Below are positions 6,477-50,349 of a DNA stretch of 64,000 nt, one piece after another. The first letter of the stretch is position 1. Every line of letters starts with the position of its first letter. Both the position numbers and the translations under genes were made by a program. Source of the DNA: an uncultured Planctomycetota bacterium (GTDB lineage Bacteria; Planctomycetota; Planctomycetia; Gemmatales; Gemmataceae); assembly GCA_963849325.1 (NCBI GenBank), contig CAWKHF010000012.1, positions 832,001-896,000 of the forward strand, read 5' to 3'. The notes beneath the pieces were generated by a model, which worked only from the letters and a program-made list of their open reading frames with translations, was not told where the DNA came from and did no database searches.

Positions 6477-6548
6477 AGTGTCCGGCGGGAGTCGCACCCG
6501 CCTATCCGACGCGGCAGGTCGGTGCCTCGGCTGCTCGGCCACGGACAC
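6477..6548 (-). tRNA. tRNA-Gly(GCC), array
   Basis: Acceptor GTGTCCG/CGGACAC, anticodon arm CCGAC-CTGCCGC-GTCGG; variant T-loop TGCGACT. Confidence 0.8.
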
Positions 6549-6553
6549 AAGAG

Positions 6554-6623
6554 CAAGGACGGAAGGAGTCGAACCCTCGGCGCCTGTTTTGGAGGCAGGC
6601 TGCTCACCCAGGAGCACGCCCTT
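6554..6623 (-). tRNA. tRNA-Trp(CCA), array
   Basis: Anticodon loop CTCCAAA, T-arm GAGGG-TTCGACT-CCTTC. Confidence 0.8.
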
Positions 6624-6633
6624 GTCGAACCAG

Positions 6634-6706
6634 CTGCCCCGGCAGGACTCGAACCTGCAACCGTCTCGTTAACAGCGAGCCGCTCTACCGTTTGAGCTAC
6701 AAGGCA
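6634..6706 (-). tRNA. tRNA-Asn(GTT), array
   Basis: TAGCTCAAACGGTAGAGC D-arm, loop CTGTTAA, GCAGG-TTCGAGT-CCTGC. Confidence 0.92.
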
Positions 6707-6726
6707 AGCAGACAGAAATGCCTCAG

Positions 6727-6799
6727 AGACGCCGGCAGGAGTCGAACCTGCTTCGATGTCGGGTTGCGGCCGACCGCCTGGCCGTCCGGCCCCGGCGTC
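6727..6799 (-). tRNA. tRNA-Cys(GCA), array
   Basis: GACGCCG/CGGCGTC acceptor, GTCGG-CCGCAAC-CCGAC, U73 discriminator. Confidence 0.82.
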
Positions 6800-6811
6800 A
6801 TAACAGACAAG

Positions 6812-6884
6812 GGCCGGCGGTGGGACTCGAACCCACTTGGTCCGCGTTACGAAGGCGGTGCCCGGCCCGTCGAGCATCGCCGGC
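6812..6884 (-). tRNA. tRNA-Thr(CGT), array
   Basis: GCCGGCG/CGCCGGC acceptor, loop TTCGTAA, GTGGG-TTCGAGT-CCCAC. Confidence 0.8.
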
Positions 6885-6892
6885 TTTGGTCA

Positions 6893-6963
6893 GCAGCCAG
6901 TGCTGGTGTCGAGCCAACTGGACCGAGGTTCAGAGCCTCCGTCCCCTGCCGAGGGCCTGGCTG
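6893..6963 (-). tRNA. Degenerate tRNA-Gln(CTG), array
   Basis: CAGCCAG/CTGGCTG acceptor, GAGG-CTCTGAA-CCTC, short D-arm, T-loop CTCGACA. Confidence 0.6.
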
Positions 6964-6972
6964 ACGTGCGAG

Positions 6973-7045
6973 GGTGGCCGGCGGGAGTCGAACCCGCACA
7001 ACCCCGGTTCACAGCCGGGTCTCGCTGCCGCTTGAGTTCGGCCAC
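6973..7045 (-). tRNA. tRNA-His(GTG), array
   Basis: GTGGCCG/CGGCCAC, CCCGG-CTGTGAA-CCGGG, C73. Confidence 0.88.
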
Positions 7046-7047
7046 AG

Positions 7048-7119
7048 TGCTTCAACCTGGAATCGAACCAGGAACTCGGCCTTCGCAGGACCGCGTGATG
7101 TCCCTTTCACCATCGAAGC
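7048..7119 (-). tRNA. tRNA-Arg(GCG), array
   Basis: CGGTC-CTGCGAA-GGCCG anticodon arm, CCTGG-TTCGATT-CCAGG. Confidence 0.85.
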
Positions 7120-7126
7120 AACACAG

Positions 7127-7198
7127 TACCCCGGCCAGGAATCGAACCTGGACCTGCTCCTTCGGAGGGAGCCATGATGTCCCTTTCACCACCAGGGC
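7127..7198 (-). tRNA. tRNA-Arg(CCG), array
   Basis: GCTCC-CTCCGAA-GGAGC, CCAGG-TTCGATT-CCTGG. Confidence 0.88.
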
Positions 7199-7210
7199 AA
7201 CACGAACCAG

Positions 7211-7293
7211 TGACCAGGGAGGGACTTGAACCCTCACGCCGCGGTGGGCACGGTCTTCTGAGGACCGCGTGTCTGCCATTCCACCACCTGGCC
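7211..7293 (-). tRNA. tRNA-Leu(CAG), array
   Basis: GGTGGAATGGCAGACAC D-arm, loop CTCAGAA, long variable arm. Confidence 0.92.
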
Positions 7294-7305
7294 ATTTACC
7301 AACAG

Positions 7306-7378
7306 TGGACCGTGGAGGGAGTTGAACCCTCATTTGCCGGGTGCAAGCCGACCGTCTTCCCCGTTAGACGACACGCCC
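7306..7378 (-). tRNA. tRNA-Ala(TGC), array
   Basis: GTCGG-CTTGCAC-CCGGC, G3:U70-compatible acceptor with one bulge. Confidence 0.78.
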
Positions 7379-7392
7379 GGGAGAAAAAGCAG

Positions 7393-7465
7393 TGGCCCCG
7401 GTGGGGATCGAACCCACATCGCCCTGTTTAAGAGACAGGTGCTCCGCCAATTGAGCTACAAGGCC
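7393..7465 (-). tRNA. tRNA-Lys(CTT), array
   Basis: TAGCTCAATTGGCGGAGC, CCTGT-CTCTTAA-ACAGG. Confidence 0.92.
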
Positions 7466-45723: not shown

Positions 45724-47228
45724 GAATGGCGTTCGGTTAAGCGTAGCCTCTTTCGCTGCTTGAACTTCTGACGATCTTGGAAAGGCGGCAGCCTCCTGCC
45801 ATGATGGAGTTGTCCAGACCTCATCATCTCAGGAGGCCGCCATGCTTAGTATGTCGCAAGCCCTCGAACGCATCAAGGGTGCTACCGCCCAATGGATCGA
45901 TGCCCCCCTCATCCATTCCCTCGCACGAGCGCTCCGTCTCGGCGAACATCAGCGTCGGCTGACTCCCCTGGTCACCACCCACTTGTTCATCCGCCAAATC
46001 CTCGAAGGGAACACCTCGGTCTCCGAACTCCGCCGCCTCGCCAAGCTTTCCTTCGCAGACTCGTCCTACTGCGAGGCCCGACAACGCCTGCCCGTGCCCT
46101 TCTTCCAACGACTGGGCGTCGCCGTCCTCGACCGCTGCCGCTCCAGCGACAACGACCCACGCGCCTTGTGGCATGGTCATCGCGTCTTTTTCCTCGATGG
46201 TTCCAGTTTCTCCATGCCGGACACGCCCGACTTGCATGCCGCCTTCGGTCAGAGTGGCCAGCAGGCCCAAGGCTGCGGCTTCCCCACGGCCCACCTGCTG
46301 GTGCAGTTTCATGCCTACACCGGCTATCTGATCAACGTCATGCCGGGACCGTTACGGACGCACGACCTGGCCGACCTGACCTGGACCCACCGCGGACTGC
46401 GGGCTGGCGACGTGGTGGCCGGCGATCGCGCTTTCTGCTCCTATGCTCACCTGGCGATGCGACACCAACGAGGCGTTTTCAGCCTCTTTCGTGCCCATCA
46501 GCGTCTTATCATCTCCTTCAAGCCGCGGCGGAAGCACGTCGCGCCGAACCGTCAGCCCCGCAAGGCAGAAGCGGGCTTGCCCCACTCGCGCTGGCTGCGT
46601 CGGCTGGGCCGCGACGATCAACTCGTCGAGTACGTTAAGCCAGCCGAGTGTCCGGCCTGGATGGACAGCCAGGAGTATGAATCCTTGCCGTCGTCGCTGG
46701 TGGTCCGTGAGGTGCGTGTGCCGATCCGGACGCCGACTTGCCGGGTGCGGGAGTTGACCCTGGTGACAACGCTGTTGGATCGACGGCGTTATCCGCCGGA
46801 GGTGTTGGCTCGGCTGTACGAGAAGCGTTGGGGCGTGGAAGTCAATCTGCGTCACCTGAAACAGACCTTGCGCATGGACGTGCTGCGTTGTGAGACGTGG
46901 CAAGGTGTGTGGAAGGAACTGTTGGTCTTCGTGCTGGTGTATAATCTGGTGCGTCGGGTGATGGTGGAGGCGGCGCGACAGCAAGAGGTGGAACCAGAAC
47001 GTATTAGCTTCGCGGATGCGTGGCGTTGGTTGCGGGAAGCGCGGCATGGCGAAGAATTGCCGCGGCTGCAGGTAGTACCGTGTCGTCCCGGTCGCGTGGA
47101 ACCGCGGGTGAAGAAACGTCGGGCCAAACCCTACGACTTGATGAACCAACCACGAGCCGCGCTGCGCGAGAGATTGTTGCATCAAACGTCACCACCACAA
47201 GAAGATGCGGCTTAACCGAACGCCATTC
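45724..47228 (+). mobile_element. IS4-family insertion sequence
   Basis: Transposase 45842-47215 (DGSS, GDRAFCSY, YEKRWGVEVNLRHLK); perfect 19-bp TIR GAATGGCGTTCGGTTAAGC; 11-bp TSD GTTCCTGACAC. Confidence 0.95.
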
Positions 47229-47259: not shown

Positions 47260-47858
47260 CTACCCCCCTACGATCAGCGACAGGATGCCGACCAGCTTGG
47301 GCAGTTGGCGGACGTGATACTCCTGCTGGTCGAGAGCCACCGCCGACCCCACCAGCCGCAGGAACCGCCACACCGACCCGGATGTAACGGCCCCGTAGAC
47401 CTCGCTCCCCGGCTGCCCCTCCCGTTCGTTGAACAGCCGCGCTCCGACCATCGCCGCCACACATTGCCCAAGCCCCGACTTGAGGTTCTCGTTCTTCGCC
47501 TCCACGATGGCGGCGACCGGGCTCCGCAGGAACTGTTGCTCCGGCGATCGGGACAGGATGAAGTCGCAATACCCCGCTAGCCCTTGGGACGCATCGACCG
47601 TGAAGTCGATCCCGGAGAAAACGCTGAACCGGTGTCCGAGCTGAGCCCGGAGGGCGGCCAGGAGCGGGGCGATCACCAACTCGGAACGGGCCTTCTCGGT
47701 ATTGATGGCCAGGGCGAGCGGGACGAACTCCGGCAGCAGGCGCGGAGCAGCGGCCCCGGCTCGACTTCGGGCGCGTCGCCGAACAGGTCGGGCACGTCCG
47801 TGAGGGTGAGGCCGAACCGGTCGATCACCTCGCGCAAGGTGAAGTCGCTGTATGCCAC
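47260..47858 (-). CDS. Hypothetical PD-(D/E)XK-like protein (frameshifted)
   Basis: MAYSDFTL..GYCDFIL..VEAKNE..GQCVAAM..VYGAVTSG..W.FL. Confidence 0.7.
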
Positions 47859-47970
47859 GCGCCCTCCTACACGCCTCTTTCGCCGAACACCCAGATCAGC
47901 AGCCAGTTGGCCAGGACAGATGTTGAAGCTTGGAAAGCCAGAATGGCCGCCCGGTCTGCTGCAGCGCCTG

Positions 47971-49803
47971 GATACTCATGAAGGCTCTTGAAGCACACTT
48001 GAAGGAGACAGCACTCAGCCGCTGTCTCCTTCACCTGCTAACAACGAGAGGTCTTCATGCGCTACTTCCAACCTCCACCCGACACCCGATTCTATGCCGG
48101 CGTCGATCTCCACGCCAGATCCCTCTTCCTCGTCGTCCTCGACCACACCGGACAGATTCGCTACGCACGCAATCTCCCCGCCGCACCCCAGCCCTTCCGC
48201 AAAGCCATCACACCTTTCCGCGATGGACTCGTCGTCGGCTGCGAGTGCATGCACTGCTGGTACTGGCTGGCCGACGCCTGCCGCGACGACAACATCCCCT
48301 TCCTGCTCGGACACGCCTGGGCAATGAAAGCCGTCCACGGCAGCAAGACCAAGTGCGACCGTAAAGACGCCGAGGCCATCGCCCACCTGCTCAAGGGCGG
48401 CAACTTCCCGCTCGCCTACGCCTACCCCAAAGAACGACGTGGACTCCGCGACCTGCTCCGCGCACGCCTCCGCCTGGTCCGCCAACGCGCCGAACTCTAC
48501 GGCCACGTCCACACCGCACGACGACAGCTCAACTTGCCGCCCATCTCCAACGATGTCAAATACAAGTCCAAGCGTGCCAGCGTCCTGGCCGACATCGACG
48601 ACGACTGCGTCCGTCGCCGCGTCGAGGCCGACCTGTCGCTGCTGGAGCCGCTCGATACCACCATCCGACGACTGGAGAAGGACATCGAGGTCGCCGCACG
48701 ACAGCACTATGCCACCGAGATGGCCGTGCTGCAATCGACACCCGGCGTCGGCCTCGTCATCGCCCTGACCATCCTTTTGGAGATCGACACCCTCGAACGC
48801 TTCGACACCCGCCAGCAGTTCTGCTCCTATGCCCGGCTATGCGGCGCCCGCCAGGAGTCGGCCGGCAAGAAGGTGGGCACGGGCAACGCCAAGCAGGGCA
48901 ACGCCTGGCTGAAGTGGGCCTTCTCCGAGGCGGCCGTACTCAGCGCCCAGAAGGACGAACGCATCGGCCAGTACCTGGACAAGCTGTCGGGCCGTCTGGG
49001 CCAAGCCAAAGCCTTGTCGGCATTGGCCCACAAGCTGGGACGAGCCTTCTACCACATGCTCCACAAAAAGGAGGTCTTTCAGATCGACCAATTCCTGAGA
49101 CACTGAGAAGCCAGGGCGCGGCCGGCGAGCCGAAGCCGAACGGGAGCCGCTACGGGCTAACCCTTACGACGACCCCCACCATCCAGGGAGCATCGACTCC
49201 GCAGTGGGGGTCCGGGACCGCCCAGGCATCCAGCCGCTTTGATGGGACGCCGGCCGCGTCCGTATTATTTCGACCGCGGTGGTCGCAAAAACAGGCCGCG
49301 ATCCGCCGGTGGGTCGGGGGACCAACGGGATCAGCGTAACGCTGTCCCAAGGAATCGGGCTTGGCTTTGAGCCATCCCACGTCCTCCCGACCCCCGCCAG
49401 ACCGCGACCCGTGATCGCAAGGAGCCATTCGCCCGGACGATCCGCCCCAGTCGCCAGCCTGGCCGAACGGGACGCTCCTTTGGGGGAGTGAGCCAGTCGC
49501 TTTTTGAATGGCGGCGAAGCTGGGAACGTATGAATATCGGGACCGGCCAGGGCAGGTTCCCTGGCACAGCCGCCTGGTCCTTCGGGTCTGGGCCGCCGGA
49601 GTCCGCATGAGTGTTGGGTGCGGTTCGCCTCGGCCGTGGGCCGAAGGTGTTCCGCGTCCGTCGCTGATATCCAAGCCGGATCGCCGAGGACGATTGCTCA
49701 CTGCCGCTGCAACCTTGTTCGGTCATCCTTCCGGCAAGAAAAACGCCGGAGATACCCGTTCCCGTGGAAAATATTTTTACTTGACACCAAGAGCCTTATG
49801 AGT
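47971..49803 (+). mobile_element. IS110-family (IS1111-type) element with long 3' non-coding region
   Basis: Recombinase 48057-49106 (AGVDLH, GCE, KCDRKDA; PGVG, SYARL..ESAG); inverted repeats ACTCAT(G)AAGGCTCTTG at both ends; no TSD. Confidence 0.9.
49107..49780 (+). ncRNA. Candidate bridge/seek RNA region
   Basis: About 670 nt non-coding, several hairpins, short matches to target and element end. Confidence 0.55.
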
Positions 49804-49839
49804 GTTCGGCCGCATTGTCTGCTGCAATCCTTGAGCGAA

Positions 49840-50349
49840 TTACCACCAACACCTGGCCTGCCCGACGCCTGACTTCGGGATCAGCCCAATCCAATCGGGA
49901 TTCAAGCGCCGTCCGTAGCGCCCGGAGGAGTGAACTCCCGCCACACGGGCGTAGCGGGCGAACACCCGCCGACTGCCTCCTTCAATACTCCGCAAAATAC
50001 ATTGCGTAAGCCTCTCGCGCTGTCCTGCGTTCAGGTGGCAACGCTTTAATCGATGCAGGATTTTTTCTTTGATGTATCCCGATCGAAAAAACCAGGGATC
50101 TACTTCGAGGAAGCAGATGGCATCTTCCACTGCTTCGGGTTCTTGCTGTCCCAACTCCTGGAGTCTCTTGGCAAGGCCGCCGGGGAAAGCTAAGTGATCG
50201 TAGAGACCCAGAAACGAATCGCGGGCAGAAGCGTAATTCTCCGAGCGATTTTGCACGGCTTCATTAAAGCGCCGATTCAGTGCGGCCAGGCGCGTCGTAC
50301 TCTCGACAATTTGCCGATGGCGAACGGTTATGCTGCGATTCTTGGACAT
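49840..50349 (-). CDS. Gene-cassette hypothetical protein
   Basis: ATG 5 nt after GTTCGGC; visibly lower GC; FLEVDPWFFRSGYIKE; ends next to attC. Confidence 0.7.
   Translation of the reverse strand: MSKNRSITVRHRQIVESTTRLAALNRRFNEAVQNRSENYASARDSFLGLYDHLAFPGGLAKRLQELGQQEPEAVEDAICFLEVDPWFFRSGYIKEKILHRLKRCHLNAGQRERLTQCILRSIEGGSRRVFARYARVAGVHSSGRYGRRLNPDWIGLIPKSGVGQARCWW

Follow-up and report, generated by a model that had tools for sequence, protein, structure and literature searches.

How does an insertion sequence come to lie exactly at the edge of an integron recombination site (attC) in a planctomycete, and what could have steered it there? The question is raised by a 64,000-nucleotide (nt) stretch of DNA from an uncultured bacterium of the Gemmataceae (Planctomycetota; assembly GCA_963849325.1, contig CAWKHF010000012.1, G000:C12:832001-896000 in our numbering), hereafter the window, within which positions are given unless another contig is named. 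An element of 1,833 bp that we call IS-A occupies positions 47971-49803. We consider it quite probable that IS-A is an intact, recently active element of the IS110 family with an IS1111-style layout, guided by RNA into the R'' end of attC sites. The anatomy of the element, the attC identity of its target, its repeated insertion at a single position and in a single orientation, and the partly co-varying RNA segments are directly established. It is probable that the element is active and that it is steered by a guide RNA of its own.

The element and its limits

IS-A consists of the following parts.

47971..49803, + strand: whole insertion sequence IS-A (1,833 bp; 1-nt G ambiguity at the joints)
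47971..47990, + strand: left end, with GATACT (-10 of the putative junction promoter; guide-matched part) and then the subterminal repeat AAGGCTCTTG (47981-47990)
48000..48033, + strand: hairpin with a perfect 13-bp stem, in the leader before the transposase start (relatives have a hairpin at the same place with different letters)
48057..49106, + strand: DEDD transposase gene, intact, 349 amino acids (aa) (PF01548, PF02371, NF033542)
49107..49803, + strand: 3' non-coding region, 697 nt (seven planctomycete elements can be aligned from end to end here)
49781..49803, + strand: right end, with TTGACA (49781-49786, -35 of the putative junction promoter), the subterminal repeat CAAGAGCCTT (49788-49797) and terminal ATGAGT

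The limits can be read directly from the joints. The left flank runs ...GCAGCGCCTG up to 47970, where GATACT opens the element at 47971, and the right tip ...TATGAGT ends at 49803, with GTTCGGC opening the right flank at 49804. No direct repeat is present at the joints, which indicates insertion without target duplication; a G shared by both joints allows the alternative limits 47972-49804, the circle junction being identical for both. These limits are matched by a second copy (G000:C7:540433-542265, 99% identity over exactly 1-1833) and agree with uninterrupted target sites of the form ...CAGCGnCTG-GTTCGGC. The open reading frame (ORF) at 48057-49106 matches both IS110-family domains, PF01548 (E 1.4e-11) and PF02371 (E 1e-16), and reaches 182 bits (cut-off 140) on the NCBIfam model NF033542, "IS110 family RNA-guided transposase"; 86 nt of non-coding sequence precede the gene, versus 697 nt that follow it. 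The initial annotation, which had described an intact IS110/IS1111-type element at 47971-49803 whose removal restores its target without a duplication, is thus borne out, in its first part by the Pfam and NCBIfam matches and the exact second copy, and in its second by the joints and the uninterrupted sites.

The perfect inverted repeat of the ends spans 10 nt (AAGGCTCTTG, 47981-47990, and CAAGAGCCTT, 49788-49797). Since the same 1.9 kb holds 14 inverted pairs of 10 nt or more, this repeat alone is within reach of chance, and we take it as real because relatives keep it with changes on both arms. The longer arms that had been proposed (47974-47990 and 49788-49803) reach 16-17 bp with a gap of 1 nt, so that the perfect core stands but the full arms do so only when gapped. 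Past the perfect repeat the element extends by 10 nt on the left and 6 nt on the right (an asymmetry of 4 nt, which the family shares), or by 6 and 3 nt when CAT/ATG is counted as part of the repeat. The left end is kept in six planctomycete relatives and has GATACTCATTGAGCC as its gammaproteobacterial counterpart, and TTGACA is present in seven of seven aligned planctomycete elements. Joined, the ends would give TTGACA-N17-GATACT, a near-consensus promoter facing the transposase gene, exactly as first annotated; the layout is kept in the planctomycete relatives.

The interrupted site is an attC

The flank of IS-A is part of a repeat of ~97-101 nt, for which 49 nhmmer matches and 43 covariance-model matches were obtained in the same genome, either alone or in same-direction clusters of two to three copies that lie 270-2,100 bp apart. 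On the + strand of the window the repeat consists of GCCGAAC, an unpaired spacer of ~9 nt, CAGCAG-CCGG followed by another stem, a variable middle, a return arm (CCGG-T-CTGCTG) that contains an additional T, the spacer CAGCGnCTG, and GTTCGGC. When this structure was named by hand in 20 full copies, 87.3% of cells were paired, versus 17-41% with the partner slid by 1-3 columns, and compensatory changes were seen in 7 of 19 pairs; RNAalifold on a MAFFT alignment of the same 20 repeats, in which two sub-families are offset by one base, returned 9 pairs only and was set aside. The boxes GCCGAAC/GTTCGGC are one position off the R''/R' consensus RYYYAAC...GTTRRRY, the extrahelical T occupies the arm in which the attC sites of plasmid R751 carry theirs, and when the site is rebuilt without the element, its predicted fold shows the R and L stems separated by an open spacer.

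As an outside test we used R1, a covariance model derived from the 20 full copies. We searched 61 genomes of the Gemmataceae family for integron integrases at the TIGR02249 cut-off, found them in 25, and scanned five integrase-bearing relatives with R1. The clearest case was G049, where 22 matches follow one another on one strand, 300-600 bp apart, the first of them 420 bp from the 5' end of intI; two matches lie beside intI in G013 and five in G011, and there were none beside an intact intI in G060 and G020, G060 having one beside a broken intI copy. In the class 1 integron of R751, R1 recovers the attC of the dfrB3 (E 7e-7) and DUF1010 (E 2e-4) cassettes, both on the strand opposite the cassettes, and the qacE site scored only E 0.5. 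Because R1 was oriented as the attC bottom strand in every case, the attC top strand in the window is the - strand. Around the repeats, ORFs end before them and the next ORFs start with a ribosome site right after them, and the arrangement CTCCTTC-GCCGAAC found here recurs at other copies too. The occupied site and its two neighbours in the window read as follows.

47882..47970, - strand: main part of the split attC, with the R' box (GCCGAAC on +, 47882-47888), spacer, L boxes, variable middle and extrahelical-T arm (R1 match C12:879877-879981)
49804..49810, - strand: R'' box of the split attC (GCCGAAC on -, GTTCGGC on +), cut off by the element
49840..50349, - strand: cassette gene of the occupied attC, a 169-aa ORF ending 30 nt before the R'' box, no Pfam family
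47260..47858, - strand: next gene past the attC, 61-aa and 139-aa ORFs, with a GGAGG-type ribosome site after the R' box

The 61-aa and 139-aa ORFs overlap by a few bases, belong to no Pfam family and are probably one frame-shifted gene. Judged from sequence and predicted structure, the target of IS-A is a genuine attC, as the initial annotation had it, and the structure test, the intI-adjacent arrays of relatives and the R751 sites all point the same way. Elsewhere in the same genome, a remnant of an integron integrase (C5:71040-71627; L017:1294-1881) retains two N-terminal SAM-like pieces and lacks the catalytic part; its best NCBIfam matches are the two integron-integrase models and its strand is the one expected for an integron. 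It lies 3.8 kb from a three-site attC cluster, which also holds a second IS110-family element (IS-B, described below) and another transposase gene, and remnant and cluster together look like a decayed integron.

One position and one orientation, in copies and relatives

IS-A sits directly after the R'' box of the cassette top strand and before the unpaired spacer, with its transposase gene antisense to the cassettes. Insertion next to the R'' box had been proposed from the window alone, and the R1 orientation, the R751 sites and the reading of the flanks lead to the same placement.

A DNA search of the genome itself (8.16 Mb in 14 contigs, 84.7% complete) returned 10 IS-A matches. Besides the second full copy (C7:540433-542265, 99% identical) there is a 5'-truncated copy of 86% identity (C12:1417572-1418760), which adjoins GTTAGGG, and an internally deleted copy within an attC (C5:954502-954869) that is reduced to 76 nt at the left end and ~300 nt at the right end and has lost the right-flank guide discussed below. 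All three copies with both ends are flanked by ...CCGGTCTrCyGCAGCGnnTG / GTTCGGC, without a repeat. The remaining matches are short right-end remnants, among them stubs of ~47 bp at C12:510833-510878 and C7:458540-458586, beside GTGCGGC and GTTAGGC. Decayed "footprints" of IS1111-attC elements have reportedly been noted beside attC sites by Tetu & Holmes.

Between the two full copies 13 nucleotides differ. All of them lie in the ORF, where they cause three amino-acid changes, and the 783 non-coding bases are identical; seven of the 13 are clustered within 60 nt and possibly did not arise separately. Such a pattern suggests that the element moved recently and that protein and non-coding part alike are under constraint.

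Two further observations concern these copies. After copy 2 the last 96 bp are repeated exactly in tandem (C7:542266-542360), and GTTCGGC follows only afterwards, so that there are two right ends and two TTGACA boxes; the right tip of one relative (L057) is similarly doubled over a short length. What remains of a third relative (C12:1472070-1472438; 53% identity over residues 1-125) adjoins an attC at C12:1471910-1471995, whose match to the model stops at position 97, like those of the three IS-A-occupied sites and of some uninterrupted ones.

Outside this genome, a scan of one genome per species recovered 79 loci. Seven are planctomycete (Gemmataceae, "Planctomycetaceae" metagenome-assembled genomes and Fimbriiglobus), with proteins 68-93% identical to that of IS-A, and 72 are gammaproteobacterial (Marinobacter, Halomonas, Marinobacterium, Alteromonadaceae, Vibrionaceae and others), with proteins 45-51% identical. 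In four of the seven planctomycete relatives (L052, L053, L055 and L056) R1 calls an attC ending at the left tip of the element, which in L053 lies inside an array of six attC within 5 kb, and in a fifth (L054) an attC arm is seen by eye only. The initial annotation had named the flanks of other copies as its check, and the same attC position is thus found in three of three own copies, in four of seven relatives by R1 and in one more by eye.

The gammaproteobacterial elements measure 1.58-1.61 kb, and their ends, (T)GATACTCATTGAGCC... and TTGAC...GGCTCATATGT, are homologous to those of IS-A. With enough flank to be read in 43 of them, the right flank begins with GTT in 38 and with GTTA in 37. 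R1, which was built from GC-rich planctomycete sites, detects attC-like sites (E<0.01) in the flanks of 10 of 38 gammaproteobacterial loci, and 14 of the 15 matches at E<=1 lie on the strand of the transposase. In a quick IQ-TREE maximum-likelihood tree of 79 rows, the eight planctomycete rows form one clade with a long stem (SH-aLRT 85) that sits among unresolved gammaproteobacterial groups, with IS4321 and IS-B far outside. An attC-targeting lineage in planctomycetes, as initially suggested, is therefore present but is not confined to them, since its nearest kin are marine gammaproteobacterial elements resembling ISMahy12, which adjoin GTTA... boxes within arrays of cassettes.

A candidate guide RNA in the 3' non-coding region

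The 3' region was aligned for the window, the 86% copy, L051, L052, L053, L055 and L057. One-nucleotide indels in the 3' region of related metagenome contigs argue against a coding function. Within it we recognise the following.

49432..49626, + strand: candidate bridge/seek RNA core, a conserved multi-stem fold holding three guide-like segments
49461..49468, + strand: guide-like segment 1, GGCCGAAC, reverse complement of the right target flank GTTCGGCC, in a predicted multiloop
49529..49538, + strand: guide-like segment 2, TATGAATATC, approximate reverse complement of the left end GATACTCATG (8 of 10 positions)
49606..49618, + strand: guide-like segment 3, CATGAGT+GTTGGG, same sense as the right junction (ATGAGT, then GTTCGG)

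The consensus fold of 49423-49633 with six relatives comprises 61 predicted pairs, 10 of them with a compensatory change. The first 320 nt of the 3' region (49107-49430), upstream of this core, align with the relatives equally well, and the gammaproteobacterial relatives have ~200 nt less non-coding sequence than IS-A.

Natural variation allows the segments to be read. Segment 1 matches its own flank perfectly in four of the seven elements, L051 and L052 among them, and in the 86% copy it has become CCTAAC beside a flank of GTTAGGG. Segment 2 is the exact complement CATGAGTATC in the 86% copy, and among six relatives it contains GAGTATC in four and GCGTATC in two. Segment 3 carries its variable triplet in a predicted 9-nt hairpin loop, and this triplet varies along with the last three nucleotides of the element:

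Element: segment 3 triplet / last 3 nt of the element
Window: AGT / AGT
86% copy: ACG / ACG
L051: ACG / ACG
L052: ACT / ACG
L053: CGT / CGG
L055: CGT / CGG
L057: CGT / CGT

The consensus of 43 gammaproteobacterial 3' regions holds CTAAC, ATGAATGTC and ATATGTGTT in the same order and fitted to their own ends, ATATGTGTT being their element end followed by GTT. In IS1111-type seekRNA, two segments overlap on the target, the one that pairs with the top strand being located 5' of the one that pairs with the bottom strand (PMC11187229), and the IS-A segments match this arrangement in both strand order and overlap. Of the four segments expected of such an RNA three are present, and they fit a bridge/seek RNA. 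Segment 1 is identical in sequence to the R' arm of the attC itself, so that the RNA could take the place of this arm.

Several observations weigh against RNA-guided entry into attC as we describe it. In two of the seven planctomycete relatives (L051 and L057) R1 makes no attC call in the left flank, that of L051 ending in CTGCGCCGCCTG, which resembles the target. Segment 1 mismatches the flank by 1 nt in L053 and L057 (CCTAAC versus GTTCGG) and fails in L055; segment 2 of the window is itself mismatched at 49534, an A where the relatives have G (G is also found there in related soil contigs, restoring the match to the left end). Neither k-mer comparison nor alignment revealed a guide segment for the left target flank in the 3' region of IS-A. 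Every attC has one GTTCGGC on each of its strands, and the strict orientation must therefore have some other explanation. No intact integron integrase was found in this genome (84.7% complete) or in the single genome of the same genus. Finally, no circle junction, transcript or empty allele of the locus was seen in public sequencing, where the runs represent small shares of relatives: of 24 runs, each with <=0.10 of the sampled words, the four compared (two DNA and two RNA-library, as Logan contigs) cover IS-A at 88-99% likeness and hardly cover its flanks, which indicates that these sequences come from relatives; we draw no conclusion from them on expression, habitat or absence.

Three candidates for a left-target guide were rejected: CGCCTGGT (49571-49578) lies in a variable hairpin and is missing in L051 and L052 despite the same target, GGTTCG (49622-49627) is unchanged when the flank changes, and GCCTGG (49457-49462) abuts segment 1 and is not kept in L051 and L052. 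A sigma-70 site within the integrated element (49239-49268) is weak, with one found versus 0.3 expected, and was likewise set aside.

These points bear on the best surviving alternative, namely that attC is recognised mainly through protein contacts or its folded shape and that the RNA matches are incidental or secondary. The lack of a left-flank guide and the tolerated mismatches between guide and flank would suit it, as would the gammaproteobacterial elements, whose flanks vary past GTTA while the guide stays CTAAC. In these elements the reverse complement of the 7-nt right flank (at most one mismatch) occurs 47-157 nt upstream in 11 of 43 cases against 104 of 860 shuffles, a weak signal on which we do not rely. 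Against the alternative stand the co-variation of the right-end triplet across seven elements, the change of segment 1 with the flank in the 86% copy, and the unrelated IS-B, which carries an 11-nt complement of its own attC sub-site together with a 12-nt copy of its own left junction. RNA guidance has moreover been shown experimentally for other members of the IS110 family (PMC11187229, PMC11208160). We regard recognition by protein or shape as improbable, and RNA guidance remains our preferred reading.

Relation to described elements

IS1111-family elements in integrons enter attC close to its 5' end and in antisense orientation relative to the cassettes (PMC3001079), and for the IS1111-attC group (ISPst6, ISKpn4 and ISPa21; also ISPa25; Tetu & Holmes 2008, Post & Hall 2009) a seekRNA has been shown experimentally (PMC11187229). 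IS-A resembles this group in its insertion into attC near the 5' (R'') end, antisense to the cassettes, and in its DEDD transposase, long 3' non-coding region, subterminal repeats, lack of a duplication and putative junction promoter. It differs in its transposase (~17% identity, with ISMahy12 as proxy), in its extensions, which measured from the perfect repeat are 10 and 6 nt rather than 7 and 3, and in its setting, i.e., a host among the Gemmataceae, a GC-rich attC family and a non-coding region of 697 nt. The IS1111 group as a whole is characterised by a longer non-coding region 3' of tnp, subterminal inverted repeats that are usually 11-13 bp long, and terminal extensions of unequal length, 7 (or 6) bp at the left end versus 3 bp at the right end (PMC11187229). 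IS-A has the longer downstream region and the subterminal repeats (10 bp, perfect), whereas no full-length relation of its transposase to that of IS1111 is seen, judged from IS4321 and from ISMahy12.

The proxy deserves comment. ISMahy12, an ISfinder element of Marinobacter, is filed under "IS1111" with 38 copies and two unique insertion events, and elements with so few events, ISMahy12 included, were given no target logo (PMC11187229). Among the ISfinder transposases in the supplement of that study, the motif HCWYW occurs in ISMahy12 only, and its printed protein is, by eye, nearly the same as that of locus L105 in Marinobacter salarius. It shares the transposase clade of IS-A, the Marinobacter loci (L105 and others) being 50% identical to the IS-A protein, and its ends are homologous (GATACTCAT..., TTGACA...), with ISMahy12-like elements being shorter (~1.58-1.61 kb, the non-coding region by ~200 nt). 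In the published identity matrix (PMC11187229), where the IS1111 group is covered, ISMahy12 is 14-23% identical to the 171 transposases of its displayed row, including 17.1% to ISPst6, 16.8% to ISKpn4, 17.8% to ISPa21 and 20.4-20.7% to IS5075 and IS4321, and it stands at the far end beside ISGsu4, ISGsu5, ISShfr7 and ISShwo5. ISMahy12, ISShfr7 and ISShwo5 are named in no paper of the literature searched, and the attC habit of ISMahy12 seems to be undescribed. Among the papers listed in a literature search on attC, planctomycetes and insertion sequences (PMC4889954 being one of those found), none announces such an element in its title or in the opening of its abstract.

We searched 72,556 plasmids by tblastn with the IS-A transposase, which gave 172 records at E<=1e-8, the best in Alteromonas, Vibrio and Catenovulum at 43-48%, and 1,806 records at E<=1. 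IS4321 and IS5075 are abundant in plasmids of enterobacteria and Pseudomonas. Neither list has an enterobacterial genus (Klebsiella, Escherichia) or Pseudomonas among its ten commonest genera.

Could IS-A nevertheless be a member of the described, monophyletic IS1111-attC subgroup (ISPst6, ISKpn4 and ISPa21, or the set with ISPa25) that was carried into a planctomycete? Its behaviour (attC, near the 5' end, antisense) and its layout are the same, but its transposase is only 20% identical to that of R751's IS4321 (over 263 aa, 35.8 bits), the proxy is likewise remote from the three named members, and Klebsiella, Escherichia and Pseudomonas are missing from the commonest genera of both plasmid lists. 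We think this explanation unlikely, marginally more so than recognition by protein or shape. As far as the ISMahy12 proxy measures the distance, IS-A is a separate lineage outside the described subgroup; of the IS1111-attC kinship first proposed, the layout and the habit hold, and the transposase falls far outside. Least credible of all is a superficial likeness to attC, the target being another palindromic repeat (REP-like) as for ISPa11 or IS621, for although the repeats are dispersed over this genome, alone or by twos and threes, with no intact integrase, and although R boxes are short and easily found, such a repeat is hard to reconcile with the array of 22 abutting intI in G049 and the sites beside intI in G013 and G011, with R751 attC found at E 7e-7 and 2e-4, with ORFs that stop before the sites and restart with a ribosome site directly after, and with integron integrases in 25 of 61 family genomes.

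The IS621/IS110 group provides a second comparison, being an RNA-guided DEDD recombinase system in which separate segments read the target and the element ends (PMC11208160). IS-A likewise has a DEDD recombinase and candidate RNA segments for target and ends on opposite strands. It differs in the location of the RNA, which is at the left end in the IS621 group and, as a candidate, in the 3' region of IS-A; in the predicted fold, where one guide segment lies in a hairpin loop and another in a multiloop; and in the shared core, which is at most 1 nt (G) as read from the joints, versus a dinucleotide in the IS621 group.

Proposed mechanism

From the foregoing we infer a circle, transcription and guidance by an RNA, and an effect on cassette recombination, as follows. 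IS-A would be excised as a circle, as other members of the family are, and the promoter created by joining the ends would drive expression of both the transposase and the 3'-region RNA. Carrying this RNA, the DEDD recombinase would then recombine the circle junction with a site that the RNA selects through base pairing, leaving no duplication. Entry would take place on the cassette top strand right after RYYYAAC (here GCCGAAC), between R'' and the unpaired spacer. With R'' moved 1.8 kb from the rest of the attC, the fold needed by the integron integrase could form again only after the element has left.

A second element and the neighbourhood

IS-B is a second, unrelated IS110-family element of 1,453 bp (G000:C7:538905-540357; L131:1106-2558). 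Its transposase has 337 aa, is 28% identical to that of IS-A and scores 204 bits on NF033542, and its gene is preceded by 92 nt and followed by 347 nt of non-coding sequence. Other copies lie near C12:958.8-959.8 kb, C5:65.9-66.8 kb and C5:713.6-714.6 kb, and four of four copies occupy one position in the opposite arm of the attC from IS-A, where they separate CTCAG from CAGCCGG of the L box. The 11-nt complement in its 3' region is GCCGGCTGCTG, accompanied there by the 12-nt copy of the left junction. At C7:538860-542370 (L131) both elements occupy a single attC, whose 5' arm holds IS-B and whose 3' arm holds IS-A copy 2.

Within the window, a DDE transposase gene of 457 aa (45842-47215, +; PF01609, IS4-like) lies directly downstream of the gene that follows the attC, and the neighbourhood of the occupied site is rich in mobile elements. 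Nine tRNA genes are found at 343-416 and 6477-7465, eight of them clustered on the - strand within 1 kb.

Implications

That IS110/IS1111 elements disable attC is already known from Pseudomonas and from clinical integrons. What is new is the same habit in a very distant and apparently undescribed transposase lineage and in Planctomycetota, together with guide-like segments that can be read from natural variation. It is possible, though we hold this only tentatively, that attC targeting arose more than once in the IS110 family, in at least three lines (the ISPst6 group; the ISMahy12-like clade of marine Gammaproteobacteria and Planctomycetota; and IS-B), with each guide RNA reading a different sub-site of attC. 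If so, cassette sites would repeatedly serve as landing pads for RNA-guided recombinases in different phyla, and such elements would be a general cause of the decay of integrons into attC clusters without an integrase. The attC on contig C7 that is occupied by two unrelated elements offers a natural pair for asking how bridge or seek RNA reads a structured palindromic target and how orientation is chosen, and IS-A itself offers a concrete route by which a chromosomal integron may turn into scattered attC clusters devoid of an integrase.

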